Assembly (NCBI GenBank): GCA_046483285.1
Contig: JAWODN010000119.1
Coordinates: 6,015 to 70,014, forward strand
DNA from: Candidatus Aminicenantes bacterium
GTDB taxonomy: Bacteria; Acidobacteriota; Aminicenantia; Aminicenantales; Aminicenantaceae
DNA length: 64,000 bases
Direction: 5' to 3'
Part shown: piece after piece, positions 6,348 to 49,607 of the stretch
Numbering within the stretch: the stretch's first letter is position 1
How the letters are laid out: the number at the start of each line of letters is the position of its first letter
Position numbers and translations under genes: made by a program
Notes under the pieces: generated by a model
Told to the model about the DNA's origin: nothing
Seen by the model: only the letters and a program-made list of their open reading frames with translations
The model's database searches: none

Positions 6348-7796
6348 ATGACTGCGAAACGGAAAGAAAAAATTCTGGTGGTGGATGATGAGAAGAATAT
6401 CAGGAATTCTCTCAAAATGATTTTTGAATATGAGGGATATTCGGTTTTGGAAGCTGAAGACGGGGAAAAAGCAATGGAAGTCTTTGAGGAAGCCATCGGG
6501 ATCGACCTTATCCTTCTGGATGTCCAGCTTCCCGGGAAGAATGGACTGGAGATATTGAAGGAACTCAAGCAAAAGCCGTTTTCTCCTGAAGTTATCATGA
6601 TTTCTGGTCATGGAACCGTCCCGACCGCTGTCGAAGCCACCAAATTGGGGGCCTTTGACTTTTTGGAAAAACCGCTTAAACGGGAGCGGGTTCTGCTGAG
6701 TGTGCGGAATGCCCTCAGCCGGAAGCATCTTGTCCGGGAAAATATAAATCTGCGGCAGAAAGCAGAAAAACAATATCAATTAGTCGGGAATTCTCCTGTG
6801 ATGAAAAAACTATGGGAAGAAATAAAAAAGATCGCTCCCACCAACACCACAGTCATGATTTATGGGGAAAGCGGCACCGGCAAAGAACTTATCGCCCGTG
6901 CCGTCCACTCCCGGAGCCGTAGAGCCAAGGAAGCTTTCATCCAGGTGAACTGCGCCGCCATTCCGGAAGAATTGATTGAAAGTGAATTGTTCGGCCACGT
7001 CAAGGGCGCATTCACCGGAGCGACGGATAAAAAGCCGGGAAAATTTGAATTAGCGGACGGAGGTACCATTTTTCTGGACGAGATTGCGGATATGAGCCTG
7101 AAAACCCAATCGAAAGTGCTTCGGGTTCTGGAAGAAGGAGAGGTGCAGAAAGTGGGTTCCTCCAAGATCGATAAAGTGGATGTCCGGGTGATCGCCGCCA
7201 CCAATAAAGACCTGAAGCAGGAAATATCCCGGAACAATTTCCGGGAGGATTTGTATTTCCGTTTAAATGTGGTTCCCCTGTATTCTCCCCCTCTGCGGGA
7301 AAAACCGGAGGATATCCCGCTTCTGGTTGAATATTTCGCCGGTTTGTTTGTCACTGATAATAATTTCAAGAAAAAAAATTTTTCCGGCAGCGCCCTGGAA
7401 GCCATGCGGAGGCACCACTGGAAAGGCAATGTCAGGGAATTAAAGAACGTGGTTGAGAGATTGATTGTTATGAGTGAAAAAGGTACAATAGAAGCAAAGG
7501 ACCTTCCGGAACAAATAAAAGGGGAAAACAAAATCTTTTTACCGGATACGGATGAGGTGAAAAGTCTGAAAGAATTCCGGGAACAGGCGGAAAAACAGTA
7601 TATTCTGGCCCGTTTGAAAGAGAATGACTGGAATATATCCCGTACCGCCAGGGATATTGATACTCCGAGAAGTAATTTATATAAAAAGTTAGACCAGCAT
7701 GGAATAAAAATAACGTCCGGAGTGGATGAGGTGGTTGCTTCTTCCGAACAGGAAGGGGAGGAAAGTCCGAACTCCACAGGGCAGGATGGTCGCTAA
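6348..7796 (+). CDS. sigma-54-dependent response regulator (NtrC/AtoC family): receiver, AAA+ and Fis-type HTH domains
   Basis: The receiver domain has the phospho-acceptor region 'DLILLDVQLPG'. The AAA+ sigma-54 interaction domain shows Walker A 'GESGTGKE', the 'GAFTGA' motif and the 'ESELFGH' box. A C-terminal HTH is present. No histidine kinase is adjacent. The 3' 80 nt overlap rnpB. Confidence 0.85.
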   Translation: MTAKRKEKILVVDDEKNIRNSLKMIFEYEGYSVLEAEDGEKAMEVFEEAIGIDLILLDVQLPGKNGLEILKELKQKPFSPEVIMISGHGTVPTAVEATKLGAFDFLEKPLKRERVLLSVRNALSRKHLVRENINLRQKAEKQYQLVGNSPVMKKLWEEIKKIAPTNTTVMIYGESGTGKELIARAVHSRSRRAKEAFIQVNCAAIPEELIESELFGHVKGAFTGATDKKPGKFELADGGTIFLDEIADMSLKTQSKVLRVLEEGEVQKVGSSKIDKVDVRVIAATNKDLKQEISRNNFREDLYFRLNVVPLYSPPLREKPEDIPLLVEYFAGLFVTDNNFKKKNFSGSALEAMRRHHWKGNVRELKNVVERLIVMSEKGTIEAKDLPEQIKGENKIFLPDTDEVKSLKEFREQAEKQYILARLKENDWNISRTARDIDTPRSNLYKKLDQHGIKITSGVDEVVASSEQEGEESPNSTGQDGR

Positions 7797-8079
7797 CAGC
7801 GACTCCGGGCAACCGGAGGAAAGTGCCGCAGAAAACAAACCGCCTGGGGAATGATTGTCCGCAGGCAAGGGTGAAAAGGTGAGGTAAGAGCTCACCGCTT
7901 TGAGAGTGATCTCAAAGGCACGGTAAACCCCATCCGGAGCAAGGCCAAATTGGCCCTGATGAGGCGGCCCGTCTCATGGGGCGGGTAGGCCGCTTATGCT
8001 TTATTTCGGCAAAGCGCAGATAAATAACCACCCCCGCCTCCGGCGGGAACAGAATTCGGCTTATGTCCCGCTCCGGACG
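7714..8079 (+). ncRNA. rnpB: RNase P RNA (bacterial type A)
   Basis: Universally conserved blocks are present: 'GGAGGAAAGTCCGAACTCCACAGGGCAGG', 'CGGAGGAAAGTGCCGCAGAAAACAAACCGCC', 'GGTGAAAAGGTGAGGTAAGAGCTCACC', 'GGTAAACCCCATCCGGAGCAAGGCCAAAT' and 'ACAGAATTCGGCTTATG'. The P1 helix pairs 5' 'cgtccggagtgg' with 3' 'ccgctccggacg'. Confidence 0.9.
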
Positions 8080-31356: not shown

Positions 31357-31387
31357 ATCCGGCCCGGCTGGAACATCACCGTTCTTT

Positions 31388-31420
31388 ATGAATTCGTCAT
31401 GTGTATAATACACCACGAAC
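31388..31420. repeat. left copy of a 33-bp (extendable to about 70 bp) inverted repeat; partner at 38123-38155
   Basis: 'atgaattcgtcatgtgtataatacaccacgaac' matches the reverse complement of 38123-38155 at 31 of 33 positions. Similarity continues with gaps for about 20 nt on each side. Confidence 0.7.
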
Positions 31421-31469
31421 CATGAAAATGATCCCAATGTCATTGCCGGAGCGGAGCACTTTTGAGTCT

Positions 31470-31830
31470 GTCATTCCGGGGCACGCCGTGCCTTTGAGTG
31501 TGTCATCCCGCGGTGCGAAGCACCGAGGGATCCCTTACTGGTTCGTTTTGGCGGTGGGTTCTGCTTTCACGAGGCAGGAAGGGATTGCCGCGGCTTGCTG
31601 GCGCAAGCCTCGCAATGACAAGGGGGCATGTCATTCCGGGGCACGCCGTGCCTTTGAGTGTGTCATCCCGCGGTGCGAAGCACCGAGGGATCCCTTACTT
31701 CTTCGTCTTGGCGGTTGGCCCCGCTTTCACGAGGCAGGAAGGGATTGCCGCGGCTTGCTGGCGCAAGCCTCGCAATGACAAAGTGGAATGTCGTCCCGGG
31801 GAGCGAAGCGATGAGGGATCTGTGAGTGCC
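31470..31830. repeat. 160-bp tandem repeat (2 full units plus a degenerate third), hairpin-rich
   Basis: Unit 1 spans 31470-31629 and unit 2 spans 31630-31789, with more than 90% identity. A partial degenerate unit follows to about 31830. Each unit starts 'gtcattccgggg' and ends 'cctcgcaatgacaa', and contains several perfect hairpins (ggcacg/cgtgcc; cggtgc-gaa-gcaccg; ggcttgc/gcaagcc). Confidence 0.8.
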
Positions 31831-31871
31831 TCGGCTAATGAGTCAGAACCGACTCATCAGACGAAGCCGAA

Positions 31872-31928
31872 TAAGATCCTCACGGCCTGCTTCGCAGGCC
31901 TCAGGATGACAGCGGAGCTGTCATTTTC
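31872..31928 (+). repeat. 57-bp double-hairpin element (copy A), terminator-like
   Basis: Identical 57 of 57 to 41907-41963. It contains a ggcctgc-ttc-gcaggcc hairpin nested in atcct/aggat, then gacagc-gga-gctgtc followed by ATTTTC. Both copies lie just 3' of plus-strand genes. Confidence 0.75.
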
Positions 31929-32011
31929 TAAGGTATAGGTCAGGCTTGCCTGGCCTGTTCACGGGCCGCGATCGCAATTTTTTTATGAATAAGCCAGGGG
32001 AATGAATCAGG

Positions 32012-32824: not shown

Positions 32825-33064
32825 ATTTAGTCTATCTGGTCTATCTGGTTTGTCTGGTCTGGATGGGGTATTGGGGGGATGATTCGTTTCTCACAGCGTC
32901 CTCATGGCCCATCTGTTCTTGAATTTTATGGTTGAATTCATCATAATAGCCGTTAATCATGCGGATCACCGGGTTCTCTGAATTTAAAAAAACACTCCGT
33001 GAGGGATGATGAACAGGCCGAGCCGTTTTTTACCAGCCGGAAAGACCGGGAAAGGATTGCGAAA

Positions 33065-33925
33065 ATGAAAATAGCCCTTATTCAGCAGCACGCCGTATCG
33101 GACCATGAGGACAATATGGAACGGGGGATTGAGGCTTTTAAAAAAGCAGCGGCGAACGGTGCGGGCCTCATCGCCTTTGCTGAACTGGGATTGACCTATT
33201 TCTATCCCCAAAAACCCGCGGCGGAGGAAGACAAGAAAAAAGCCGAGACCGTTCCCGGTCCCTCCACGGATGTTTTTTCTCTTTTGTCCAGAGAGCACGG
33301 GGTGGTGACTGTTCTCAATCTCTTCGAACGCTGCGGGGACAATACTTATGATGCCTCCCCGGTCATCGATGCCGACGGAACGATTCTGGGAATAACCCGG
33401 ATGGCTCATGTTATGGATGGGCTGGGGTTTTATGAAAAAGGATATTATGCCCCCGGAGATAATGAGAATTTTGTTTATGATACTTCCGCCGGCCGGATCG
33501 GTGTCGCGATCTGTTATGACCGCCATTTCCCGGAATATATGCGCTGGCTGGGGATCCAAGGGGCTCAATTGGTGGTGGTGCCCCAAGCCGGTGCGGTGGG
33601 CGAATGGCCGGAAGGATTGTTCGAAGCCGAGCTCCGGGTGGCGGCTTTTCAAAACGGATATTTCGCGGTTCTGGTCAACCGGGTGGGAAAGGAAGACCAT
33701 CTTCATTTTGCCGGAGAATCCTTTGTGGTCGATCCGGAAGGCTGTGTGTTGGCCCAAGCCCCTGCAGAAGAGGACTTTATACTTTACGCTGAAGTGGACT
33801 TGGAGAAAACAGACGGATGCACGGCCCGGCGCTTTTTTATTCCGGACAGGCGCCCAGCGCTTTACCGGAGATTTTTTTGTTCAGAAACCCCACACGTCCA
33901 TCCAAAGGAAAAAGCCAGATCATGA
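33065..33925 (+). CDS. carbon-nitrogen hydrolase (nitrilase superfamily)
   Basis: Starts 'MKIALIQQ'. The catalytic Cys region is 'GRIGVAICYDRHFPE'. The Glu and Lys blocks are conserved. Confidence 0.8.
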   Translation: MKIALIQQHAVSDHEDNMERGIEAFKKAAANGAGLIAFAELGLTYFYPQKPAAEEDKKKAETVPGPSTDVFSLLSREHGVVTVLNLFERCGDNTYDASPVIDADGTILGITRMAHVMDGLGFYEKGYYAPGDNENFVYDTSAGRIGVAICYDRHFPEYMRWLGIQGAQLVVVPQAGAVGEWPEGLFEAELRVAAFQNGYFAVLVNRVGKEDHLHFAGESFVVDPEGCVLAQAPAEEDFILYAEVDLEKTDGCTARRFFIPDRRPALYRRFFCSETPHVHPKEKARS

Positions 33926-34401
33926 AAAAATGGTATGTGGTGAACACTCGCCCGAAAAAAGAGTTTCAAGTGGAAAGGCTTCTAAAAGAGGGCGGCTTTG
34001 AGGTGTACAATCCCAAATACAAGCAGGAAGGTTTTGTCCGCCCCTTTTTCACGGGATATGAATTTGTGCTTTTTGAATATCCTCAGCATTTCCGCTTGGT
34101 GAAATACACCCGCGGTGTCAAATCATTAGTCGGCAATGAGGAAGGTCCTATTCCTATACATGAAGAAATGATCGATGAAATCAAAAACAGGGAAATTGAC
34201 GGGTTTATCGAGCTGGAAAAATATGGGAGTGAACCGGATGTGGGGGATGAAATTCAAGTGATGGAAGGAGCCCTGAAGGGACTGAAAGGGGTTTTTAAAA
34301 AGGAGTTGTCGGGAACGGACCGGGCGATGATTTTATTAAATTATGTGTCCTATCAGGGCAAGCTGATAATCGAAAAAAAGAAACTGAAAAAAATATTATG
34401 A
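33922..34401 (+). CDS. NusG paralog (specialised transcription antiterminator, RfaH/LoaP/UpxY-like)
   Basis: 159 aa. The N-terminal NGN domain reads 'KKWYVVNTRPKKEFQVERLLKEGGFEVYNP'. The C-terminal KOW reads 'GDEIQVMEGALKGLKGVFKK'. Confidence 0.7.
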   Translation: MKKWYVVNTRPKKEFQVERLLKEGGFEVYNPKYKQEGFVRPFFTGYEFVLFEYPQHFRLVKYTRGVKSLVGNEEGPIPIHEEMIDEIKNREIDGFIELEKYGSEPDVGDEIQVMEGALKGLKGVFKKELSGTDRAMILLNYVSYQGKLIIEKKKLKKIL

Positions 34402-34428
34402 GCCGGACGGAATAGCATTCTCTGCGGC

Positions 34429-34509
34429 GGCCGTCAGGATGCACAGAGAAGATGCCGCAATGCATCCAGGTTGAGTTGGGATCCGGTGATAATCAAAGCC
34501 CTGTTTTTT
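34429..34509 (-). pseudogene. 81-bp duplicate of the 3' end of the threonine-dehydratase-like gene (direct repeat of 45360-45440)
   Basis: About 91% identical to 45360-45440. The minus-strand translation 'ALIITGSQLNLDALRHLLCAS*' mirrors the C-terminus of the 45365..46339 gene ('ALIITGSKLNLDTLRHLLCTS*'). Confidence 0.75.
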
Positions 34510-34795
34510 AAAAGGACAGAAATCCCCCTTGTCCTGGATCCGGGACGTTAGAGTATCATGTATTCTGATGGCTCCTCGGCTAAGAGAGAGAAAGGGAGAA
34601 GCTCTCGCAAGTGAAAAACCTGTTCCTCTTCCTGCGACCGGAAAAGGAAGATGAGGTGTTTGACGCCTGTTAACTCTAGTGTTGGTCAAACCATGATTCG
34701 CCGGCAGTATGCCAACTTGACAAAACTCCCTAATTGGCCGAAGCTGTAAAGAGTTGCAGGGGGGTGGAGGAACCCGTAAGGAAAGGAGGAGGACC

Positions 34796-35704
34796 ATGGA
34801 ACTCGCCATCATTGGACTTGGACGCATGGGCGGCAACATGGCCGAACGGCTCGTGGCGGCGGGTCATCGAGTCATCGGTTACGCCCGGCATATTGAAACG
34901 ATTGAGGCCTTTGAGAAAAAGGGGATCGTCGGAGCGTCCTCCCTTGAAGATCTCGTTTCGCGGTTGGCCCCGTCGCGGGTGATCTGGATCATGATCCCGC
35001 CCGGAGATCCCGTAGACGAGGCCCTCCGGTCCTTGGTCCCCTTACTGACGCCGAACGACATTCTCGTCGACGGAGGGAATTCCTTTTATAAAGATACCAT
35101 GCGCAGGGGGTCCTTTCTGCGAGAGAGAGGAATCCACTATGTGGACTGCGGGACGAGCGGGGGGATCTGGGGGCTTAAGGAAGGCTATAGTCTGATGATC
35201 GGCGGTGACAAAGAAGCCGTTGACCATCTCCGCCCCATCTTTGAGGCTCTCGCCCCCGCGCCCGACAAAGGGTGGGGCCGGGTGGGACCCTCCGGGGCCG
35301 GTCATTTCGTCAAGATGGTGCATAACGGTATCGAGTACGGGCTGATGCAGGCCTATGCGGAGGGGTTTGCCCTTATGAAAGGCAAGTCTGAATTCGGCCT
35401 GGACCTTCACCAGGTCTCTGAGATCTGGAGATCCGGGAGCGTCGTTCGATCCTGGCTCCTCGATCTCGCGTCGGAAGCTTTGGCCGAAGACCAGGATTTG
35501 GATGCCGTCGCGCCCAATGTCGCCGATTCCGGAGAGGGACGCTGGACCGTGATGGAAGCGATTGAGCAGGGCCGGACAGCCCCGGTCATCGCTCTGTCGC
35601 TTATGCAGCGTTTCCACTCGCAGGATCAATACGGCTTCGCGGATAGGCTCCTGGCCGTCCTGAGAAAAAAGTTCGGCGGCCACGCGGTTGAAAAGGATCA
35701 ATAG
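34796..35704 (+). CDS. gnd: 6-phosphogluconate dehydrogenase (decarboxylating), short YqeC/Gnd-like form
   Basis: The N-terminal Rossmann motif is 'MELAIIGLGRMGGNMAERL', with 'GTSGGIWG' and 'GAGHFVKMVHNGIEYG' blocks. The RBS is 'aggagg'. The region is locally GC-rich. Confidence 0.75.
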   Translation: MELAIIGLGRMGGNMAERLVAAGHRVIGYARHIETIEAFEKKGIVGASSLEDLVSRLAPSRVIWIMIPPGDPVDEALRSLVPLLTPNDILVDGGNSFYKDTMRRGSFLRERGIHYVDCGTSGGIWGLKEGYSLMIGGDKEAVDHLRPIFEALAPAPDKGWGRVGPSGAGHFVKMVHNGIEYGLMQAYAEGFALMKGKSEFGLDLHQVSEIWRSGSVVRSWLLDLASEALAEDQDLDAVAPNVADSGEGRWTVMEAIEQGRTAPVIALSLMQRFHSQDQYGFADRLLAVLRKKFGGHAVEKDQ

Positions 35705-35706
35705 CT

Positions 35707-37142
<1,436 letters not shown>

Positions 37143-37161
<19 letters not shown>

Positions 37162-37586
37162 ATGCCGGGATTGTCCGCTTCGAACGCCTCAGCGACGCAA
37201 ATGAGGCCCTGGCGGAACGCCTTGCCGAAGTCACAGACGAGGCCGTCCGGACTCGAGGACGATTCGTCCTGGCTCTCGCCGGAGGATCAACCCCGCAGGA
37301 TCTCTACCGTCTTCTCGCTGAGAGATATCAAAACCGGATCCCCTGGGACCGGACACATCTCTTTTGGGGAGATGAGCGCTGGGTTCCTCGCACGGACCCG
37401 GCGAGCAACTCTCACCGGGTTTATGAGACGTTGATCTCAAAAATTCCCCTGCCGGCACGGCATCTTCATCCCATCCCTGTCGAGATCGGCCCGCCCGCTG
37501 AAGTCGCGCTTGCCTACGAGAAAACCCTGAGGGCATCCCGGCGCGCTCATCATCCAGGTCCGACACTGATTTTTCTCTTTCATTGA
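37143..37586 (+). pseudogene. pgl: 6-phosphogluconolactonase, 3'-truncated
   Basis: The N-terminal half of Pgl is intact ('LALAGGSTPQDLYRLL', 'WGDERWVP'). The ORF stops after about 147 aa, before the expected 'LLGMGEDGHTASLFP' block. Local GC drops immediately downstream. Confidence 0.55.
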
Positions 37587-37630
37587 CCTGCCTTTCTTTA
37601 TGTGGTAATAGCTTAAATTGAGGAGGTAAA

Positions 37631-37981
37631 ATGAAAGAAAGCGAAGGAATCCAGCTTGACCGTCCTTATAAATTGGAAAATGCTTCTATAGAGAAGCACC
37701 TGACAAAAACAGGCCCTGGAGTCTTCACTCTAGGGACCATGAGCGAAAGAGCCGAGTATCTGGTGGCCTATACAGGGATTGCGAAGAAAGACCTTAAAAA
37801 AGAACTCAAAAATCTTGTTGGAAAAAGCCGGCGTCCACTGTTCACCTTTGAATACACTTCTTCCCTTAAGGAAGCTTTTGAGAAACAATGCTGCATCTAT
37901 CACCACTTCGATCCTCCTGATAACAAGCAACACCCCAAATCTCCTGAAGGAACAGATTGGACCTGTCCGACTTGTCAATAA
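37631..37981 (+). CDS. hypothetical small protein with C-terminal CxxC zinc-ribbon-like motif
   Basis: 116 aa with a strong RBS 'gaggaggtaaaATG'. The C-terminus reads '...CCIYHH...WTCPTCQ'. Confidence 0.45.
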   Translation: MKESEGIQLDRPYKLENASIEKHLTKTGPGVFTLGTMSERAEYLVAYTGIAKKDLKKELKNLVGKSRRPLFTFEYTSSLKEAFEKQCCIYHHFDPPDNKQHPKSPEGTDWTCPTCQ

Positions 37982-38122
37982 TCCGTTTATGAAAAAACGG
38001 CGGTGATAATTCACATAGTCTCCATGCTGCACACAAAGGAACCGTGGCCGGCTCAGCCTTCGTGTGTGCCGGCTTATCCATCATCCTGCTCCCATAGCCA
38101 CACTTCAGAAGTCATTTTCATC

Positions 38123-38155
38123 GTTCGTGGTGCATTATACACATGATGAATTCAT
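38123..38155. repeat. right copy of the inverted repeat paired with 31388-31420
   Basis: 'gttcgtggtgcattatacacatgatgaattcat' is the reverse complement of 31388-31420 with 2 mismatches. Confidence 0.7.
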
Positions 38156-38396
38156 TTAAAAATGTGTTCCATCTCAGCATCGAAGCTGTTTTCCTCTTCT
38201 AAGTCAAATATAACCCAAACCTTATTCATGGCTTCATCAGCGTTCGCCGGATGCTCCATCCGGAATGAATTCGATTTTCCTCCCAATCAGGTGTGTTCGC
38301 TTCCGAAAAAAATCCCAGTTTCCGGCTTTGCGGAACGTTTTCTTGCGAGGGAAGAATAAATCCTGTCTTTTCCTTCCTGCTCCTGGGAAAAGAAGT

Positions 38397-38412
38397 TGGC
38401 ATGATTTTTGTA
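38397..38412 (+). promoter_or_regulatory. sigma-54-like element (TGGCAT-N5-TTGTA), copy 3 of the repeated motif
   Basis: The sequence 'agTTGGCATgatttTTGTAtttatg' lies about 160 nt upstream of the dodecin gene. Confidence 0.2.
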
Positions 38413-38571
38413 TTTATGTTTAATAATAAACCTGAAGTATTCAAGGGCCGAGATTGCCGCAGATGCGAGGCGCATGACTAAAAACCATGCTTACTGCTGA
38501 TAAGAAAAAGATTGCGCAAACATGGTAATTTTTTTATGAATAGTTCAGGCTAAATAAAAAGGAGGAAAATC

Positions 38572-38772
38572 ATGAGTACGGCAAAAGTCATTGAAATTAT
38601 CGGAAGTTCGGAAACAAGCTGGGAAGACGCAGCCCAAAAAGCTTTATTGGACGCGGAAAAATCAGTGGAAGGCATAACCGGTTTAGAAGTGGTATCGCAA
38701 ACTGCAGAGGTTGAAAATAACAAGATTAAATATTACAAAACTGCTATTCGAGTCGCCTTTATTGTTAAATGA
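38572..38772 (+). CDS. dodecin family flavin-binding protein
   Basis: 66 aa, 'KVIEIIGSSETSWEDAAQKALLDAEKSVEGITGLEVV...IRVAFIV' matches the dodecin fold consensus. The RBS is 'aaaggagg'. Confidence 0.7.
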   Translation: MSTAKVIEIIGSSETSWEDAAQKALLDAEKSVEGITGLEVVSQTAEVENNKIKYYKTAIRVAFIVK

Positions 38773-39054
38773 CCACGATTCTTCATTCAGCCTGACCTAT
38801 TCACAACCCGGGATGGCCGCAGATGCCGGAGTTGCGGCGAGGAAGCCGCGGCCCTTCACTGCGACAAGCGGCAACTCCGGCATATGCGGTGAGTTCCGGC
38901 CTTTCGAACCATTTTTTCATGAATTTACCATATAGGGAAGCACACCGCCTGGTTTTTTTGAAGCGCGTTTGGGAAAAGGCGAGCCGCGGATACCCTGGAT
39001 TCACATCTAAGACCTGAGCCGGAATATGCATTTTCTGATTGAAAAGGAGATAAA

Positions 39055-41895
39055 ATGTATACTGTATTGATTTTGATTTTACTGGGTTTATCCGGGTGGC
39101 TCATTTATCGCGGAGTTCAGAGAAAACACACCGGAAGAACTGTATTCGGGATAATCCTGGCTCTGTTTACTGTGGGGTTTTTCTGGTTTATGGATTTCTG
39201 GGGAGAAATGCTGTGGTTCGAGGCCCTGGGCTACAATCAGAGGTTCTGGATCGTGGTGCTCAGCCAAACCGCAGTGGCGCTGGCCGGAATTATACTCGGC
39301 GGTGTCATTGTATGGCTGCTCACCTTGAAAATCCCATCCGAAAAAAGATGGTTTAAGCTGGGAGCCCGTATCCTGGGAGCATTCACCGGAGCTGCCTGGG
39401 CATTATCCAACTGGGAAGCTATTTTGCGTTTTTGGTTCCGGGTGGGATCGGAAACGACGGATCCGGTGTTGGGGAAAACTACCTCATTCTATATGTTCAG
39501 CCTGCCTTTTTTCGACCGTTTTTATGAGCTTTTGCTGCTGCTGGCGCTGATAGGCATAGGCGCGGTTTTTGCGGCTGCTTTCCTGCGGTTTGAAGGGGAG
39601 CAGATTGATTTTAATCTGCCGCAGCTGACCTCCGGGTCCGGCAAAGCCATGGTCGAAAATTTTTTTCGGGGCGCTTCCGTGCTTTTGGTGGTGCTGGCAT
39701 TCGGCAAATATTTAAGCCGGTTTCATTTGATGTATTCGGATTGGGGCGCGGTCACAGGCGCCGGCTGGACGGATGTTAATATCCGGTTACCCGGATATTT
39801 GGTTGCGGTTGCAGTTTCGATTTTACTGGCGGCCGGACTGCTTTTTCCGGCAGTCCGCACCAGGCTGGGAAAGCTTTTTTACCCCAAAAAATACGGCGGC
39901 CAAAAAGCTCCGCTTTACACATTTATATCCGCCGCAATTGTGCTGTTCGGGACTTGGTTTTTGGTCCTGACCGCGATACCCGGACTATTCCAGTGGCTGC
40001 GGGTGGAGCCCAATGAAATCACTTTTGAAAAACCTTATATTCAAAACAACATTAAGCTTACCCGGGAGGGATTCGGTCTGCATTTAATCGAAGAAAGGGA
40101 ATTTCCGGTTGCGGAAACATTTACTCCTGAAATGGTGGATGAAAATCAAAGTATCTTCCAAAATATCCGGTTATGGGATTGGCGGGCTCTGGATGCGGTC
40201 TATAAACAATTTCAGGAAATCCGCTTGTATTATGAGTTCCAGGATGTGGATATCGACCGGTATACCTTTAACGGCCAATACCGCCAGGTTATGGTGTCCG
40301 CACGGGAAATGCAGTTTTCCAATCTTCCTTTGCAAAGCCAGACTTTTGTCAACCAGCGGTTTAAATATACCCACGGCAACGGCATCACCCTGACCACAGT
40401 GCAGGAATTCACCCCCCAGGGTTTGCCCAATCTTCTGATTAAGGATATCCCGCCTCAAAGTGAATATCCGGAACTGAAAGTCGACCGTCCGCAAATTTAT
40501 TATGGAGAATTGACCAACTATCATGTGATTTCCAACAGCGATGAAGAGGAATTTGATTATCCCAGCGGAGAAGAGAATGTTTATTCCCGGTATCAGGGAG
40601 AAGGCGGAGTCCGGATGTCCAATATCTGGCGAAAATTTCTTTTCGGGTGGAAATTCGACGGCACCCGGCTTTTTCTGTCCAGCTATCCGAATCCGGACAG
40701 CCGGATCATGTTCCGCCGCCGGATTAAGGACCGGGTCCGGACTTTGGCGCCTTTTCTGCGTTTTGATGACGACCCGTATGTGGTTTTAGCAAACGGCAAA
40801 CTCTATTGGATCATCGACGCCTATACCAGTTCCGCCTATTTTCCTTACAGCGAACCTTTTTCGTCGCAGGAAGTGATCGAGTATCAAGAAGGGAATATTT
40901 CCCGGACGTTGACGAACCAGATCGCAACCCGGCTGGACGGCGCCAATTATATCCGCAATGCCGTGAAAGTGGTGGTGGATGCCTATGAAGGATCGGTTGA
41001 TTTCTATATTTTTGATCCGGAAGATCCCATTATCCAAGTTTGGAGCCGGATTTTTCCGGATTTGTTTAAAAAAAAGGACGACATGCCGGAATCCCTCTTG
41101 CCGCATATCCGGTATCCCGCCGACCTGCTGCTGGTGCAGGGACGGGTCTTTTCAAAATATCATATGACGGACCCGGCCGTGTTTTATAATCAGGAAGATT
41201 TATGGATCCGTGCGACCGAAAAGTATTATGATCAGGTCCAGCCGGTTGAACCCTATTATGTGATGTGGGAGCTGCCGGAAGAAGACGAGCCCCAGTTTGT
41301 TCTGATTCTGCCCTTTACGCCTAAAAACCGGCAGGTGATGATCGGTTGGATAGCCGGAATGTGCGATCCGGAGAATTACGGACGTTTTCTGGCCTATAAA
41401 TTTCCCAAAGAAAAGCGGGTGCTGGGTCCCCAGCAGGTGGAAACCAAAATAGATCAAGAACGCTTTTTATCCGGCCAATTAAGTCTCTGGAATCAGCGGG
41501 GATCCAGTGTCATCCGGGGTAACGTGCTGGCCATTCCAGTGGATAAAACCGTTATTTATGTTGAACCGATTTATCTGCAAGCTGAAACCGCGGCCTATCC
41601 GGAACTCCGGCTGGTGGTGGTTATGCACGGCGATAATCTCAGCTATGCCGAGACCTTTGAAAAAGCCCTGCAAGGACTGTTTGATAAAACCATTCCCGAG
41701 CAGGCTTTGCCGCAGGAAGCACCTGCTGAAGCCGCAGCTCCCTTGGATACGCTGATTCAGGATGCCGACCGGGCCTTCAATGATTATCTTCGCTTGCTCG
41801 GGGAAAAGCGTTTCGGAGAAGCCGGGCAAGCCTTGGATCGTCTGCAGAACGCACTGAACCGTCTGGTTGAGCAGTCCGGACAAAACCGGCAATGA
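39055..41895 (+). CDS. UPF0182 family large membrane protein
   Basis: 946 aa with an N-terminal multi-TM region and a large extracytoplasmic domain. Blocks 'NYIRNAVKVVVDAYEGSVDFY', 'PHIRYPADLLLVQGRVFSKYHMTDPAVFYN' and 'VIYVEPIYLQAETAAYPELRLVVVMHGD' closely parallel actinobacterial UPF0182 proteins. Confidence 0.8.
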   Translation: MYTVLILILLGLSGWLIYRGVQRKHTGRTVFGIILALFTVGFFWFMDFWGEMLWFEALGYNQRFWIVVLSQTAVALAGIILGGVIVWLLTLKIPSEKRWFKLGARILGAFTGAAWALSNWEAILRFWFRVGSETTDPVLGKTTSFYMFSLPFFDRFYELLLLLALIGIGAVFAAAFLRFEGEQIDFNLPQLTSGSGKAMVENFFRGASVLLVVLAFGKYLSRFHLMYSDWGAVTGAGWTDVNIRLPGYLVAVAVSILLAAGLLFPAVRTRLGKLFYPKKYGGQKAPLYTFISAAIVLFGTWFLVLTAIPGLFQWLRVEPNEITFEKPYIQNNIKLTREGFGLHLIEEREFPVAETFTPEMVDENQSIFQNIRLWDWRALDAVYKQFQEIRLYYEFQDVDIDRYTFNGQYRQVMVSAREMQFSNLPLQSQTFVNQRFKYTHGNGITLTTVQEFTPQGLPNLLIKDIPPQSEYPELKVDRPQIYYGELTNYHVISNSDEEEFDYPSGEENVYSRYQGEGGVRMSNIWRKFLFGWKFDGTRLFLSSYPNPDSRIMFRRRIKDRVRTLAPFLRFDDDPYVVLANGKLYWIIDAYTSSAYFPYSEPFSSQEVIEYQEGNISRTLTNQIATRLDGANYIRNAVKVVVDAYEGSVDFYIFDPEDPIIQVWSRIFPDLFKKKDDMPESLLPHIRYPADLLLVQGRVFSKYHMTDPAVFYNQEDLWIRATEKYYDQVQPVEPYYVMWELPEEDEPQFVLILPFTPKNRQVMIGWIAGMCDPENYGRFLAYKFPKEKRVLGPQQVETKIDQERFLSGQLSLWNQRGSSVIRGNVLAIPVDKTVIYVEPIYLQAETAAYPELRLVVVMHGDNLSYAETFEKALQGLFDKTIPEQALPQEAPAEAAAPLDTLIQDADRAFNDYLRLLGEKRFGEAGQALDRLQNALNRLVEQSGQNRQ

Positions 41896-41906
41896 CCGGA
41901 GCCATC

Positions 41907-41963
41907 TAAGATCCTCACGGCCTGCTTCGCAGGCCTCAGGATGACAGCGGAGCTGTCATTTTC
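41907..41963 (+). repeat. 57-bp double-hairpin element (copy B)
   Basis: Identical to 31872-31928. It begins 12 nt after the UPF0182 stop. Confidence 0.75.
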
Positions 41964-42108
41964 GAACGAATAGATCAGGTAAACTATCATCCACAGGTTT
42001 CCTGAAAAAATATAAAGACGAGGCAAGCATGAAGCACTCCATCCGCATACAGCGGCCTTTTTGCCCGGCCGGGCAACATAAGGATCCATAAACCGGCATC
42101 CGGAGGCT

Positions 42109-43905
42109 TTGATGAATGACATTAAAGATTATTACCTGATCGGAGATCTGCAGACCGCAGCCCTGGTTTCCAAGAGGGCATCCATCGACTGGATGTGCCT
42201 GCCGCATTTTGATTCGCCGAGTCTTTTCGCCCGCCTGATTCATGAGGAGGGAGGTTGTTTCTCATTCATTGGGGATTATGAAGTTATAGAAAAGGGTTAC
42301 ATGGGAGAGAATGCCACAGTCGAGTTTATGCTGAAAAAAAACGATACCCTAGTGCGGTTGCGGGATTTTATGGTTCCCCGGCCGGTGGAAGAATGCCGGG
42401 TGCATTTCCTTGTCCGCAGATTCAAAGCCCAAAAAAGGGATGCCCGGATACGGTTCCGGTTTGATCCCCGGCCGGATTACGGCCGGAAAAATATTTCTCT
42501 TGAGCATTCCGGCGGTTTTTTGCAGGCTGAGATGAACGGCAATGATCTGATTCTGCATTTTCCTCCTGATGCGGAGGCTGAACAGGAGAACAGCGGATAT
42601 ATAATTCAAGTCGATATAAAAGAGGGTGACAGCAGGGAACTTGTCATGGAATACCGGACACGGGAAAAATCAGATGTGGTTATCGATGATTATGAGTCCT
42701 TCACGAATGACTTTTGGAAAAAATGGATCGCACAGGGAAAATATTTCGATTTTTGCCGGCGGCAGATGACCCGGTCCGCCATAACCCTTAAACTGCTGCA
42801 GTATTACCCCACAGGCGCCCTGATTGCGGCACCCACAACCTCACTGCCCGAAGAATTGGGGGGTGTCCGGAACTGGGATTATAGGTATGTTTGGGTTCGG
42901 GATGCCACTTTCACATTATATGCCTTTTTCATTTTGGGATATAAAGAGGAAGCGGTACGTTTTTTTCAGTTCATAAAAAATATCAGCCGGGGCTGTCCCC
43001 GGTGCAACGGGGAAATTCATTTGATGTACAGCATTACCGGCGGCCATGTGCCCAAGGAGCAAACTTTGGGTCATTTATCCGGATACCGGAATTCATCCCC
43101 GGTCAGGATTGGAAACGATGCCTCCGGACAGATGCAGTTGGATATTTACGGTTCTCTGGTCGACGCTTATTATTTCATGTGGACCCGGGGCATGGACATG
43201 ACCTCTGATACGAAAGAGATTATTGTTTCCCTGGTGAAAAGCATCCGGGACAACTGGCGGAAAGAGGACAACAGCATGTGGGAAATCCGGCAGAATAAGC
43301 GGCAGTATATCTACGGTAAGGTGATGTGCTGGGTTGGAATGAACCGGGCGGTCCGGATGTGTGACGCCATGGATATTGACTCCCGGACCAAACAGCAATG
43401 GGCAGATTCGGCTGAAGAGATAAAGACCTGGATCTGGGAGCATGGCTATCGCGAGGATTTAGGCACCTTTGTGCAGTATCCGGAGACCCGGCATCAGGAT
43501 GCCACCAATTTCCTGTTTGTTCTGCTTCAGTTTCTTGACCGCCGCGAGGAGCGGACCCGCCGGATTGTGGACCATACCCGCAACGAGCTGGAGCATGACC
43601 GTATCTTTGTCTACCGGTATCTGTCCGAAGACGGCCTGTCCGGAAATGAAGGGGCTTTTGTGCTCTGCTCCTACTGGCAGATAGCGGCTCTGGCCGCGGT
43701 CGAAGAGATTCAGGAAGGGACCAGCCGGTTTTTTGAAATGGAAAACTATATGGGCAAGTCCCGTCTTTTGGCCGAAGAGATCGATCCTGAAACCCGGGAA
43801 TATTTAGGGAATTACCCCCAGTCCTTTTCCCACATGGGGCTGATTCTGGCGGCCCGGTATTTGAAGAAGTACCATGATAAAACCGGCGAAGGCACCCTGG
43901 AATAA
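42109..43905 (+). CDS. glycoside hydrolase family 15 (glucoamylase/trehalase-like)
   Basis: 598 aa. The N-terminal 'DYYLIGDLQTAALVSKRASIDWMCLPHFDSPSLFARL' is the GH15 hallmark. A C-terminal (alpha/alpha)6 catalytic domain follows. Confidence 0.8.
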   Translation: MMNDIKDYYLIGDLQTAALVSKRASIDWMCLPHFDSPSLFARLIHEEGGCFSFIGDYEVIEKGYMGENATVEFMLKKNDTLVRLRDFMVPRPVEECRVHFLVRRFKAQKRDARIRFRFDPRPDYGRKNISLEHSGGFLQAEMNGNDLILHFPPDAEAEQENSGYIIQVDIKEGDSRELVMEYRTREKSDVVIDDYESFTNDFWKKWIAQGKYFDFCRRQMTRSAITLKLLQYYPTGALIAAPTTSLPEELGGVRNWDYRYVWVRDATFTLYAFFILGYKEEAVRFFQFIKNISRGCPRCNGEIHLMYSITGGHVPKEQTLGHLSGYRNSSPVRIGNDASGQMQLDIYGSLVDAYYFMWTRGMDMTSDTKEIIVSLVKSIRDNWRKEDNSMWEIRQNKRQYIYGKVMCWVGMNRAVRMCDAMDIDSRTKQQWADSAEEIKTWIWEHGYREDLGTFVQYPETRHQDATNFLFVLLQFLDRREERTRRIVDHTRNELEHDRIFVYRYLSEDGLSGNEGAFVLCSYWQIAALAAVEEIQEGTSRFFEMENYMGKSRLLAEEIDPETREYLGNYPQSFSHMGLILAARYLKKYHDKTGEGTLE

Positions 43906-43978
43906 GAATGTGAGCGGTAAAGTTATGATACGCCTCTGATTTTTTTTTATCTTTTCTTCTTTATGATAATATTTCCAT

Positions 43979-45160
43979 ATGCACATTAATGCCATACTGG
44001 ACATCGGGGTCATTCTTTTGGCCGCATCATTTGGGGCCGCCCTGATGAAATTCACTAAACTCCCTAGAATTACCTCCTACATTATAATCGGGATCATCAT
44101 CGGCCCATCCCTGGCCGGCCTCGTCTCCCCGGATTTGATGGACACATCCGATTTATTCACCAACCTTGCATTGAGTTTCATTGCCTTCGACTTGGGCAGA
44201 AAATTCTCCTTAGAACGAATTCGGGAAATCGGCAAAAATGTTATGGTAATAGCAGTCCTGCAGGTTATCGTCACATTGCTGGTGGTTGCCTTTTCAATTT
44301 ATCTGCTCACAGCCCAGCCTTTTCACATCGCTGTCATTTACGGGGCCGTCGCCTGCGCCACCGCACCAGCATCCACCATCCTGGTGGCCAAACAGCTTAA
44401 AGCGGAAGGCAAATTCACGGATACTCTCCTGGGGGTGGTTGCTCTGGACGACGGCCTAAGCATCTTGGTATTCGCCCTGGTCTTTGCTGTGAGCGGAAGC
44501 ATTGCCGGAACTCACACCGAAGCCAATCCCATCATTTCAGGGCTTATTCATGCCTTCATAGAAATATTCGGAGCCGCTGTCCTCGGTATAGTGCTGGGCT
44601 GGATCCTGTCCCATCTGCCAAAATTGATTGAAAAATCCGAAAACCTGATGATATATACTTTAGGCATTATTCTCTTTGGTGCCGGTCTTTGTATTCATTT
44701 TGATTTGTCGGTTCTATTAGCCAGTATGGCCTTAGGAATAACAGTGGAAAATTTGAGCGAATCAGACGTGAAATTTTTTCACGCGATAGAAAAAATTGAA
44801 TCCCCTTTTTATGTCCTGTTCTTTGTTCTGGCAGGCGCTCACCTTAAAATTGAAATGGTGACCGGGATTTCATTGATCGGGCTGATATATATCCTCTCTC
44901 GGACAGCGGGAAAAGTAGGCGGAGCATATGCCGGCGCTTTTTTAGTCAAAGCAGAAGCAGTTGTTAACAAATGGATGGGATTATCTCTGCTTCCTCAGGC
45001 CGGAGTGGCATTGGGATTCGCTCTGATCGTGAAATCCGCTTTTCCGGCCGGCGGACAGGAGATATTTTTTGTAATAACCGCCTCTACGGTATTTTTTGAA
45101 ATTATGGGGCCGATCATTACCAAGATTTCTCTTAATGCGGCTGGAGAGACAAATCAATAA
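43979..45160 (+). CDS. monovalent cation:proton antiporter (CPA family, Na+/H+ exchanger-like)
   Basis: 393 aa with about 11 TM helices. The N-terminal 'IGVILLAASFGAALMKFTKLPRITSYIIIGIIIGPS' is typical of Kef/NhaP-type exchangers. There is no C-terminal regulatory domain. Confidence 0.7.
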   Translation: MHINAILDIGVILLAASFGAALMKFTKLPRITSYIIIGIIIGPSLAGLVSPDLMDTSDLFTNLALSFIAFDLGRKFSLERIREIGKNVMVIAVLQVIVTLLVVAFSIYLLTAQPFHIAVIYGAVACATAPASTILVAKQLKAEGKFTDTLLGVVALDDGLSILVFALVFAVSGSIAGTHTEANPIISGLIHAFIEIFGAAVLGIVLGWILSHLPKLIEKSENLMIYTLGIILFGAGLCIHFDLSVLLASMALGITVENLSESDVKFFHAIEKIESPFYVLFFVLAGAHLKIEMVTGISLIGLIYILSRTAGKVGGAYAGAFLVKAEAVVNKWMGLSLLPQAGVALGFALIVKSAFPAGGQEIFFVITASTVFFEIMGPIITKISLNAAGETNQ

Positions 45161-45364
45161 ATCACTGGATTTTTTCTTCCCTCTTTTACTTGGCGGTGTA
45201 TCCTTTGTCGATTACAAGTTCGCTTCCGGTTAAAAATTTGGCTTCATCCGAACCCAAATAAACCACACCGTAGGCGATATCTTCGGGTTCGCCCACATCT
45301 CCTATGGGATGGAGGTCTTCAAGATTCTTCCGGTAGCCTTCCTTATCCCCGGAGTCTTCGGCCG

Positions 45365-46339
45365 TCAGGAGGTACAGAGAAGATGCCGCAATGTATCCAG
45401 GTTGAGTTTGGATCCGGTGATGATCAAAGCCCCGTTTTTTCCGTAAAACCGTTTTTTCTGCTGTTTGAGCGCAGCCACAGGAAGAGCAGCGGAGCCTTCC
45501 ACCAGCATGTGCTGATGCTGCAGCAGCCAGAGGAGGGAAGACGCGATTTCTTCTTCTGAAACCAGGATGAAATCATCCACCCATTCCCGGCAGATATCAA
45601 ACGTGAGGGAGCCTTCTTCGAGCCCTCCCGCTGTGCCGTCGGATAAAGTCGGTTTGGAGTGGTATTCCATGATCCGTCCCGCTTTTACAGATTCATGCAT
45701 GACCGGAGAATTTTCCGGCTGGACCCCGATCACCTCTATTCCGGGCCGGCGGTGCTTAAGAACCCCGGCCACTCCGGAGATAAGCCCGCCTCCGCCCACC
45801 GGAACCAATATGAAATCCAGCCGGCGGCTCTGTTTCAGAATTTCCAGGCCTGCCGTGGCCTGCCCGGCGATGATCAAAGGATCGTTATACGGGGATATGA
45901 ACACTCCGTTGCGCTCCGCCGCCGTCCGCCGCGCCTGATTTTCCGCTTTGACACAATCATCTCCATACATATGGATTTCCGGACGGTACATGCGCAGGGC
46001 ATCCAGCTTGGCGGTGGAGGCGTATTCGGGAAGAAAAATTGTTCCTTTCAGGTTGAAAAGATGGAGGGCGTAAGCCACTGCGGCGCCGTGATTTCCGGAT
46101 GAGGCGGTGAAGATTCCGGCGTTTTGTTCTTCCGGTCTCAGAGCCAGGATTTTATTTAAAGCTCCCCGGAGTTTAAAGGAACCGGTGATTTGCCAGTTTT
46201 CCAGTTTTAAAGAGATATCTCCACTGTTTTCCCGGCTGAGAAAAGGGGAGGGGTCCAAAGGGGTCTCGCGGATATAAGGACGGATTCGGTCCTCTGCGTT
46301 GACGGCTTCCTTAAATATGTTTTTGGGTTTGAAACTCAT
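45365..46339 (-). CDS. PLP-dependent threonine/serine dehydratase-like enzyme (fold type II)
   Basis: 324 aa with the PLP lysine motif 'TGSFKLRGA' and a glycine loop 'PVGGGGLISG'. There is no ACT domain. The 3' 76 nt belong to the 81-bp direct repeat. Confidence 0.8.
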   Translation of the reverse strand: MSFKPKNIFKEAVNAEDRIRPYIRETPLDPSPFLSRENSGDISLKLENWQITGSFKLRGALNKILALRPEEQNAGIFTASSGNHGAAVAYALHLFNLKGTIFLPEYASTAKLDALRMYRPEIHMYGDDCVKAENQARRTAAERNGVFISPYNDPLIIAGQATAGLEILKQSRRLDFILVPVGGGGLISGVAGVLKHRRPGIEVIGVQPENSPVMHESVKAGRIMEYHSKPTLSDGTAGGLEEGSLTFDICREWVDDFILVSEEEIASSLLWLLQHQHMLVEGSAALPVAALKQQKKRFYGKNGALIITGSKLNLDTLRHLLCTS

Positions 46340-48662: not shown

Positions 48663-49607
48663 CTACTGCTCGACGATTTCGACCCGTCTGTTCTTGGCCC
48701 TTCCCTCTTCGGTGGCGTTGCTTTGGAGAGGAGCGACCGGACCGGCACCGTACGGCTTGAGCTGGTTCCTGTTCACGCCGTATTCGGACACCAGTTTTTC
48801 AACCACGGCTTCGGCCCTCTCCTTGGAGAGCGCGATGTTCATATCGAAATCACCCACGCTGTCCGTATGACCGACGACAAGAACCTTTTGATCTTTGTGG
48901 GCATTCAAGTATTCAGAGATCACCTTGAGGGCGGCGGCGGATTCCGCCTTGACTTCGGATTTTCCCGTATCAAAAAGAATGTCATAAATCGCGATTCGTC
49001 CCTGCACGGCCAGGCCTTCGCGGATGGCGTCCACCGAAACCATCCCGATTTCCATAGGCTCCGCCTCCAGCGTGACCAGTTCAAAGAACGTTCGCTTCTG
49101 TTCACCCGGACCCCGGGAGCCCCGTCCGGCGGCGACGACGACATAGACATCTTTCCCTGCGGCAGGCACTTGTGCCGCCAGGTATTCGGTGACATTCCCG
49201 GGAAAATGGGTGTGCGTCATGTGAGACGTGGCCAAACCATACTCCCTGCGGTTCCGTTGGAAAATGTCGCTGAATGTCGATCCGTCGATCTCGATGGACC
49301 CGGGATCTCTCGAAACAAAGATGATGGTTCCCCCTAGATCCTGGATGGCTTTTTCGTAGTTTCTGATGATTTCAAGCGGAGAGCGCCCCTCGGGAGCCCG
49401 GCAAAACTGCCGCCGAAGGGTGCCTTCGACGGTCCGGATGCCGGATTCCCCGGCGATGAAAGAAAACTCCTCGTATCCGATCTGGTCATCATAGCGAATA
49501 TCGCTGCCGGCATAAATGGGTATGATTTCGTCGTCGCCCTCTGCAAGGACCGCCGGTGACAAGCCGAAAATCAGGGCGGGTATCAGAAAGATGAGCCGGG
49601 TTTTCAT
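48663..49607 (-). CDS. OmpA-family peptidoglycan-associated protein
   Basis: 314 aa with a signal peptide. The C-terminal OmpA domain reads 'VLVVGHTDSVGDFDMNIALSKERAEAV...NRRVEI'. Confidence 0.75.
   Translation of the reverse strand: MKTRLIFLIPALIFGLSPAVLAEGDDEIIPIYAGSDIRYDDQIGYEEFSFIAGESGIRTVEGTLRRQFCRAPEGRSPLEIIRNYEKAIQDLGGTIIFVSRDPGSIEIDGSTFSDIFQRNRREYGLATSHMTHTHFPGNVTEYLAAQVPAAGKDVYVVVAAGRGSRGPGEQKRTFFELVTLEAEPMEIGMVSVDAIREGLAVQGRIAIYDILFDTGKSEVKAESAAALKVISEYLNAHKDQKVLVVGHTDSVGDFDMNIALSKERAEAVVEKLVSEYGVNRNQLKPYGAGPVAPLQSNATEEGRAKNRRVEIVEQ

Follow-up and report, generated by a model that had tools for sequence, protein, structure and literature searches.

In a 64,000-nucleotide stretch of DNA from a Candidatus Aminicenantes bacterium (the window, meaning the whole stretch that was analysed), two genes that adjoin each other in related genomes, one for an RfaH/UpxY-like NusG paralog and one for a threonine/serine dehydratase, stand about 11 kb apart. 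We observed that the intervening segment is bracketed by two copies of the dehydratase gene end, that relatives have the same site without the segment, that its content is mosaic and partly truncated, and that no recombinase was found in it. From these observations we infer the route of recombination and the order of events. The best explanation, in which our confidence is about even, would be an illegitimate insertion independent of any integrase, which duplicated or displaced the gene end and was followed by remodelling.

The duplicated end of the dehydratase gene

A repeat search returned one direct-repeat family of 82 nt, whose two copies (34428–34509 and 45359–45440) align without gaps at 76 of 82 positions (92.7%) and bracket 10,849 bp. 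The borders of the repeat are sharp; when 430 nt around each copy were aligned, no similarity was seen past the edges. A 34-nt core of the repeat occurs exactly twice in the window and in none of 100 shuffles, and the 82-nt pair ranks second in length among the dispersed (non-tandem) direct repeats of the window, the longest being an 83-nt pair. The original prediction, made from the letters of the sequence, had described an 81-bp repeat (left copy 34429–34509, about 91% identity) with both tails in the same orientation and reading frame. This was essentially right, one nucleotide at 34428 being added here, and the translation and stop codon of the left copy agree with the shared frame.

The right copy comprises the third base of a Gly codon, the last 24 codons of the dehydratase (KNGALIITGSKLNLDTLRHLLCTS), the TGA stop codon and six further nucleotides (CGGCCG), so that the duplication starts at codon 300 of the gene and ends six bases beyond its stop. 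This copy is the true end of the dehydratase gene. Read in the same frame, the left copy translates as KNRALIITGSQLNLDALRHLLCAS followed by a stop, and at the DNA level it is 75% identical to the 3′ end of the dehydratase gene of a relative (locus L008). The six mismatches between the copies, four of them non-synonymous at first codon positions and two synonymous at third positions, are scattered along the whole repeat, the longest identical run being 20 nt. Because two of the four non-synonymous changes (G to R and K to Q) alter orthologue-conserved residues in the left copy, and because this copy has no start codon and is preceded by an in-frame stop 12 codons upstream, it is a non-functional, decaying fragment. 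Alignment and translation of the flanking DNA gave no longer dehydratase pseudogene upstream of it.

Two other identities of the 82-mer were considered and rejected. A structured RNA or terminator is not indicated by the fold z-scores, which range from −1.3 to +0.5 for either strand of either copy, and Rfam gave no match. As to a dispersed multi-copy element, only two copies are present in the 64-kb window, the core has no match in the viral (IMG/VR) and JGI metagenome collections, and the repeat is homologous to the tail of the L008 dehydratase.

Insert-free relatives, assembly and age

The source is a metagenome-assembled genome (MAG), of which the window and short Logan contigs were read. 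Informative relatives were obtained through a search for homologous proteins, through the contigs that encode them and through a metagenome scan with the NusG paralog; a scan of genome contigs with the dehydratase returned only relatives at most 49% identical. Through the dehydratase we found L008 (NCBI GCA_964505785.1; 77% identical) and the JGI loci L010–L014 (73%), where the orthologue lies in conserved synteny. The gene order in these loci is PolX, ligase, Fpg, (P-type ATPase), CN-hydrolase, NusG and DegT, followed on the opposite strand by dehydratase, permease, racemase, Nramp and hydantoinase B/A. DegT is of full length in L008 and has shrunk to 72 aa in L010. The scan with the NusG paralog gave 23 additional loci, and when the window proteins were mapped onto them, the same block (CN-hydrolase, NusG, (DegT), dehydratase, permease and, further on, Nramp, HydB and HydA) was observed in lineages of 56–72% NusG identity. 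At least 10 related lineages (NusG identity 56–83%) keep the NusG-(DegT)-dehydratase adjacency, and none of these has a gene of the insert within 10 kb of the NusG-dehydratase block.

The gap between the two genes holds DegT, a DegT relic, or DegT and one more gene in L008, L010–L014, L028 and L031, the extra gene of L031 being an ornithine cyclodeaminase-like open reading frame (ORF). In L025, the stop codons of NusG (10480) and of the dehydratase (10488) are only 7 nt apart; the original prediction had proposed looking for such an empty site, and it exists. In the window, the left repeat copy begins 26 nt past the NusG stop and its own stop codon is 32 nt from it. Since this 32-nt gap parallels the 7-nt gap of L025, the left copy occupies the ancestral position of the dehydratase gene end beside NusG. 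Relatives retain the adjacency, and the 11-kb segment is therefore a lineage-specific insertion relative to them. The nearest insert-free relatives stand at 73–77% protein identity, at which comparison of DNA is saturated, and none of the genomes in the database falls between 98% and 77% dehydratase identity.

Other changes were also seen in this syntenic block. The CN-hydrolase and NusG genes form a conserved overlapping pair across Aminicenantes-like lineages (L008, L010, L022–L033), usually followed by a DegT/DnrJ/EryC1 aminotransferase gene, which is missing in the window, L025 and L026 and is decaying in L010. An 897-aa P-type cation ATPase lies between Fpg and the CN-hydrolase in the two closest insert-free relatives (L008 13734–16427; L010 11451–14144) and is missing from the window (32825–33064) and from more distant relatives. 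Neither a DegT nor a P-type ATPase relic is present in the 64-kb window. Between racemase and Nramp, the window has an OmpA-family gene (48663–49607) that L008 does not have. In some relatives the dehydratase, or dehydratase and permease together, is missing at the conserved position (L026 10438–10622, L027, L029, L030, L033), and NusG or DegT there directly precedes permease, racemase or unrelated genes (an aminotransferase, 395-aa ORFs of unknown function). Indels at gene junctions are common in this block, and its dehydratase end is variable in general. At the NusG-dehydratase junction itself, relatives have no recombinase gene; the other genes seen there encode an ornithine cyclodeaminase and an aminotransferase.

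A 60% GC block within a 51% GC contig of a MAG could have been produced by misjoining, either of the block itself or of the left junction. We regard such a chimera as barely credible, because Logan contigs, which come from another assembler (runs SRR31818007 and SRR31818008), reproduce three junctions. The left one (NusG, left repeat, gnd, zwf) is contained in L047, which equals 34339–36263 at 100% identity, and the internal junction zwf′-pgl′-orf116 is covered by L048. The right junction (GH15, antiporter, SDR′, dehydratase, permease) is found in L001 at 100% and, from another run, in L009, which represents a strain with 97.6% identity over 7.9 kb. L009 extends back to 41958 only, so the left junction is covered in one strain. 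The junction sequence also has no long shared k-mer.

The two strains differ by 3–4% at third codon positions and by 5–6% in non-coding DNA, and the repeat copies differ by 7.3% (6/82, with a wide error). From this comparison, the duplication would date from about the time of the strain split or from somewhat before it, in agreement with the right-hand part of the insert being present in both strains. The 77% relatives, which are without the insert, would have split off long before the event.

Composition of the insert

The features of the insert and its flanks are collected in Table 1. All complete genes of the insert, from gnd to the antiporter gene, lie on the plus strand.

Table 1. Coordinates, strand and supporting evidence for the repeat copies, the flanking genes and the parts of the insert
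Feature	Position in the window	Strand	Evidence and remarks
CN-hydrolase gene, conserved left flank outside the insertion	33065..33925	+	Pfam CN_hydrolase E 3e-48; 80% identical to L008 orthologue; syntenic in >10 lineages
RfaH/UpxY-like NusG paralog, last conserved left-flank gene	33922..34401	+	Pfam NusG; NCBIfam RfaH 1e-21, below family cut-off; 83% identical to L008/L010
Left repeat copy, orphaned and untranslated remnant of the end of the dehydratase gene (24 codons plus stop and 6 nt)	34428..34509	-	Repeat search, alignment, translation
272 nt of unknown origin at left inner edge	34510..34781	.	GC 0.50; terminator-like hairpin on minus strand 34649-34623
GC-rich fragment gnd-zwf-pgl′, probably foreign	34782..37531	+	Pfam, NCBIfam, DNA homology to L045
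gnd	34796..35704	+	Pfam, NCBIfam
zwf	35707..37161	+	Pfam, NCBIfam
pgl′ (truncated 6-phosphogluconolactonase)	37143..37586	+	Homologous only up to residue 130 of 249
orf116, stand-alone small protein (116 aa)	37631..37981	+	Predicted GIY-YIG-like fold; C-terminal Cys motif (W-CP-C)
MITE-like copy 1, internally deleted, directly upstream of dodecin	38431..38549	+	Repeat comparison; 13-nt terminal inverted repeats CCTGAAnTATTCA
Dodecin gene, between the two MITE-like copies	38572..38772	+	Pfam Dodecin E 1e-21
MITE-like copy 2, 5′ two-thirds, variant internal hairpin	38791..38901	+	Repeat comparison
Relic of DUF1731-type epimerase gene, residues ~186-215, in-frame stop	38954..39043	+	tblastn vs L015; DNA vs L020
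UPF0182 gene	39055..41895	+	Pfam E 2.5e-248; host-typical codon usage
83-nt dispersed terminator-like repeat, right after UPF0182 stop	41897..41979	+	Second copy 31862-31944, 90%
GH15 / trehalase-like glycoside hydrolase	42109..43905	+	Pfam Glyco_hydro_15 and TREH_N; NCBIfam TreH1-like below cut-off; present in strain L009
Cation/proton antiporter	43979..45160	+	Pfam Na_H_Exchanger; beside dehydratase in L001, L009
SDR′ relic, last ~50 codons and stop of short-chain dehydrogenase (SDR) gene, 5′-truncated	45183..45341	-	tblastn to L045 SDR residues 217-262, E 1e-6
Right repeat copy, functional 3′ end of dehydratase gene	45359..45440	-	Repeat search, gene annotation
Threonine/serine dehydratase (PALP), 324 aa, first conserved right-flank gene	45365..46339	-	Pfam PALP E 4e-79; NCBIfam NF005292 401 bits (cut-off 371)

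The 272 nt at the left inner edge showed no similarity to any fetched locus, nor to the ROK gene that precedes gnd in the Acidobacteriota locus L045 (GCA_033549365.1). From the next nucleotide on, the gnd-zwf-pgl′ fragment matches L045 9076–11825 at 81.7% DNA identity. The order ROK-gnd-zwf-pgl-radical SAM is intact in L045, and homology to it begins 14 nt ahead of gnd and ends at residue 130 of 249 of pgl, exactly where pgl′ stops; the NCBIfam lactonase model is matched at positions 3–121 of 234 only. The fragment has a GC content of 0.596, and of 0.70–0.73 at third codon positions (GC3), in a window of 0.509. The contigs of its nearest homologues are similarly rich (L045, 0.611; L046, 0.623), those of near relatives of the flanking genes being at 0.48–0.49. 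The fragment is best read as horizontally acquired and truncated. As gnd and zwf are intact and pgl is cut in mid-gene, an oxidative pentose-phosphate module would have been acquired without its lactonase, unless another copy exists in the genome.

The small gene orf116, which follows, has no match in Pfam, NCBIfam or PHROG; its family, with 620 cluster representatives, is widespread and uncharacterised, the nearest member being 41% identical. The AlphaFold2 (AF2) model has a predicted local distance difference test (pLDDT) value of 94, and its top eight Foldseek hits are UvrC GIY-YIG domains (probability 1.0, TM 0.67, E only 7e-3). The family consensus GxYALG...YVGRS...AFEKEC...DN resembles the GIY-YIG motif, with sequence profiles below significance. 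We consider orf116 to be a real gene with a predicted GIY-YIG-like fold.

On either side of the dodecin gene is a copy of a family of about 253 nt that resembles miniature inverted-repeat transposable elements (MITEs). The family has 13-nt terminal inverted repeats (TIRs; CCTGAAnTATTCA) and is multi-copy over several Aminicenantes lineages, and the arms of its variable internal hairpin co-vary between copies. Its 3′ part (...ATCGCAATTTTTTTATGAATAGTTCAGG) sits directly upstream of gene starts. Of the four copies inspected, only two have matching 4 nt at their flanks (TTAA, CTTA). Copies elsewhere were found in L015 (5186–5438 and 14324–14577), L008 (17470–17849), L026 (3 copies), L010 (643–722) and L020 (2675–2747); the two in L015 are direct and bracket its UPF0182 locus. 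TIR-like matches in the window are three times the chance expectation.

The UPF0182 gene of the insert has orthologues of 84% (L015–L018, L020–L021) and 74% (L019) identity, all at another locus. The context shared by the two 84% lineages is epimerase (DUF1731), UPF0182, methyltransferase and SpoU and, further on, aldo-keto reductase, DUF5916 and UvrA, of which the L019 neighbourhood shares only the aldo-keto reductase and DUF5916. Loci L020 and L021 share JGI samples with the empty-site loci L012 and L011. Just upstream of UPF0182 in the insert we observed a 90-nt relic of the same epimerase gene, which ends 11 nt ahead of the UPF0182 start (its last base and the ATG being 12 nt apart). It matches the L015 epimerase at 63% over 30 aa (tblastn E 3e-6 on the window and 1e-9 on a small database) and L020 at 75% DNA identity over 71 nt. 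With this relic beside it, UPF0182 would have come with a piece of its old neighbour, which argues that it was relocated from the clade's conserved epimerase-UPF0182-methyltransferase locus.

The repeat right after UPF0182 belongs to the 83-nt pair mentioned above. It contains two hairpins and a T-run and so resembles a terminator; its other copy lies in the ligase-Fpg intergenic region, and L008 and L015 have incomplete copies behind some of their genes. The spacing of the pair 31862/41897 is similar to that of the 82-mers, but we rejected it as evidence of a segmental duplication, since the two pairs are not offset equally, the genes between the copies are unrelated and relatives carry the element at dispersed sites. 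The ligase-Fpg spacer (31357–32011, 655 nt) is itself rich in repeats. Besides the 83-nt repeat, it holds a MITE 3′ end (31971–32011), a 55-nt inverted match to 38112–38166 (85%), and a tandem duplication of 160 nt (31469–31628 and 31629–31788, 94%). A 125-aa ORF within it (31401–31778) has no family match and is probably spurious.

At the right end of the insert, the GH15 gene has host-typical codon usage, and the 198 nt from the antiporter stop to the right repeat encode SDR′ on the minus strand, whose translation ends in ...PIGDVGEPEDIAYGVVYLGSDEAKFLTGSELVIDKGYTAK followed by a stop. SDR′ ends 17 nt from the right repeat, and its divergence between the strains (5%) equals the intergenic rate. 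No SDR gene adjoining the dehydratase was found in the relatives, so SDR′ presumably arrived with the insert.

The insert would thus be a patchwork of random-ended chromosomal fragments and not a discrete element, the pieces being gnd-zwf-pgl′, epimerase′-UPF0182 and GH15-antiporter-SDR′. On the right it ends in the interior of a gene (SDR′) and on the left in the anonymous 272 nt, and its internal joints also cut genes (pgl′ and the epimerase relic).

The composition also bears on the reverse course of events, in which the 11-kb arrangement would be ancestral and the relatives would have lost the insert. Recombination between the 82-nt direct repeats would indeed yield an empty site like that of L025. 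We give this course very little credence, however. All of the at least 10 lineages compared above are without the insert; UPF0182 is at the other locus in three relative lineages, and the epimerase relic travelled along with it; gnd-zwf-pgl′ is compositionally foreign and not ameliorated; and the divergence of the repeat copies is only about twice that of the strains.

Route of insertion and likeness to known systems

In the explanation that we favour, an ancestor would have had the convergent NusG paralog and dehydratase genes, as in the relatives, and DNA would have entered 76 nt upstream of the dehydratase stop codon by illegitimate recombination. It could have been inserted at a staggered break whose fill-in duplicated 82 nt. 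Alternatively, a replication template switch could have returned 82 nt behind its point of departure, or homology-facilitated illegitimate recombination (HFIR) could have used the dehydratase gene as anchor. Each of the three routes would give the same product, with a complete 3′ end at the right and the last 82 nt stranded beside NusG, where the tail would then decay as non-coding DNA. Selection would have retained only events that left the dehydratase intact, which would explain why the repeat starts within the gene and extends slightly beyond its stop.

To judge from its internal mosaic, the insert was assembled in one complex event or in several, and it would have been further remodelled around the MITE copies. 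It is plausible but speculative that recombination between dispersed repeats moved the UPF0182 piece, since MITE copies flank dodecin, the 83-nt repeat trails UPF0182 and the MITEs of L015 bracket UPF0182.

Several points weigh against this explanation. A target duplication of 82 nt is far longer than is usual for illegitimate insertions, and neither a donor nor an intermediate genome is among the relatives found. The outer edge of the repeat, 6 nt past the stop, fits a replacement 3′ end borne by an element or a donor equally well. On its inner side, the left repeat is followed by 272 nt for which this explanation gives no account and which could be left over from something else. For the patchwork to arise, either one event must have been complex or the same site must have been hit several times, and UPF0182 may have been either moved or copied.

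We searched for mobile-element genes in all ORFs of at least 60 aa in 34.4–45.4 kb and in the leftover small ORFs, and no recombinase was matched in Pfam, NCBIfam or PHROG; a transposase domain was likewise not found in the segment. Its non-coding stretches and small ORFs hold no integrase or transposase remnants, and the ORFs scanned elsewhere in the window include no integrase, transposase or phage genes. The repeat search gave no inverted pair joining 34510 to 45358, and MITE-type TIRs are present inside the insert only, not at its ends. None of 30 related loci, none of them between 98% and 77% dehydratase identity, has an element at the NusG-dehydratase junction.

The original prediction had listed gnd-zwf-pgl′, dodecin, UPF0182, GH15 and an antiporter in a segment of heterogeneous composition from which no integrase remains. 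Pfam and NCBIfam confirm the gene list, and the ORF and small-ORF searches agree about the integrase. The heterogeneity is also seen in our GC, GC3 and codon-usage profiles, gnd-zwf-pgl′ alone being compositionally foreign and UPF0182 and GH15 host-typical. Of the island-like insertion that it proposed, the insertion stands, given the empty sites; for a site-specific mobile element there is no support, in view of the missing recombinase, the lack of any such element in relatives and the truncated chromosomal cargo. Nor did we find support for the footprint of site-specific integration, since the place beside the right repeat where one would look for an att arm is taken by the truncated SDR and the 82-mer core is without viral or metagenome matches. 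Judged from these comparisons, a site-specific mobile island is not supported.

A decayed integrative element of the e14/icd type is the main alternative; it would account for the geometry as well as the favoured explanation does, and we rate it as unlikely but still to be reckoned with. Such an element would have carried a dehydratase 3′ end of its own, the 82-mers would be its attL and attR, and its genes would later have been deleted and replaced. In Escherichia coli, prophage e14 supplies a replacement 3′ end for icd, and a pseudo-icd′ of 163 bp remains on the opposite side of the prophage (PMC6379469). The present case resembles e14 (and phage 21) in icd in that a metabolic gene was entered within its 3′ end and stays intact through a second copy of its tail. 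A short pseudo-3′ end (163 bp for icd, 82 bp here) is found at the far side, and the copies differ by few substitutions. As at att sites, the end of the target gene is present twice as a direct repeat, which takes in the stop codon and 6 nt beyond it, as would a replacement end brought by an element; unoccupied targets are present in L025, L008, L010–L014, L028 and L031. The 272 nt of unknown origin just inside the left repeat also speak for this alternative. Prokaryotic islands that lack an integrase and are bounded by gene-end repeats are, moreover, known. On the other side, e14 encodes an integrase and phage genes and can excise, whereas neither a recombinase nor a phage gene, nor a relic of a mobile-element gene, nor an excised form was seen here. 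What the segment carries are truncated chromosomal genes of the same clade, nothing related to it as an element was seen elsewhere, and SDR′, the vacant junctions of the 30 loci and the unmatched 82-mer core count against an element as they did above. Mismatches extend over the whole repeat, with no identical run beyond 20 nt, a pattern that either an old crossover core or plain decay could give. An e14-like origin would also need several well-placed deletions, the loss of every element gene, the replacement of the DNA next to the right att by a truncated SDR gene and the exact survival of both att copies.

The case bears some likeness to three other systems. In HFIR with displacement of orphan 3′ ends, as in the effector-immunity arrays of type VI secretion systems (T6SS) and in Rhs/CdiA, homology in a conserved gene anchors the incoming DNA on one side, an illegitimate joint connects it on the other, and the old 3′ part is shifted downstream without a recombinase (PMC5361080). 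The orphan tail beside NusG and the random-ended cargo are alike. However, those systems show repeated, selected turnover of toxin and immunity genes, whereas we see a single event in a housekeeping gene of amino-acid catabolism; with no donor known that has the SDR′-dehydratase adjacency, the anchor step here is hypothetical. As in integrase-less islands at tRNA genes or gene 3′ ends, gene-end direct repeats bracket lineage-specific cargo and relatives have empty sites. Normally, the same target is occupied by such islands in many genomes, and at least some remnants of an integrase or phage are still present in them; neither was seen here. Like a transposon or insertion sequence (IS), the insert is flanked by a direct duplication of its target, but the duplication is 82 nt instead of 2–15 nt, the insert ends have no TIRs, there is no transposase and the MITE family is not at the ends.

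We also considered that the 82-mers might be the ends of a cargo-only mobile unit without a recombinase, which would carry its own replacement tail, target the dehydratase tail and be mobilised in trans. The mobiliser would be a chromosomal recombinase or nuclease, such as the resident GIY-YIG-like protein, or MITE-associated machinery. This is a long shot; if true, it would mean a non-canonical transfer of housekeeping metabolic gene blocks between Aminicenantes genomes.

Two or more independent steps, with a short tandem or larger segmental duplication of the dehydratase end first and indels between the copies later, are distinctly improbable; the repeat would then have arisen separately from the insertion. 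The window does contain other local duplications, for example the 160-nt tandem repeat at 31469–31788, and the insert is clearly composite, so that several events happened anyway. Yet all of the inserted DNA is confined precisely to the interval between the copies, and the borders are sharp at either end; the chance of an independent insertion at that junction is roughly 1 in 100 neutral positions. The segmental version, furthermore, needs two unrelated deletions that end at the same nucleotide, 6 nt past the stop.

The case is an instance of a known feature, a lineage-specific insertion bracketed by a duplicated gene end, and is unusual in that it has no recombinase and a patchwork cargo. It documents well how, in an uncultivated phylum, a conserved syntenic block acquired metabolic genes over about 11 kb, among them those for a trehalase-like GH15 enzyme, an antiporter and enzymes of the oxidative pentose-phosphate pathway, without visible mobile-element machinery. 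Gene-end repeats that are usually read as att sites can bracket a random-ended chromosomal patchwork, which calls for caution in automated island callers. There is no wider mechanistic consequence unless a recombinase-independent targeting is demonstrated.

The rest of the window is core chromosome, with genes for complex I, ATP synthase, phosphoenolpyruvate (PEP) synthase, PolX, NAD-ligase, Fpg, RNase P RNA and one tRNA. Within it, a 383-aa protein encoded at 5055–6206 has a baeRF (bacterial archaeo-eukaryotic release-factor-like) domain; its gene lies beside those for a sigma-54 response regulator and RNase P RNA (7718–8079).

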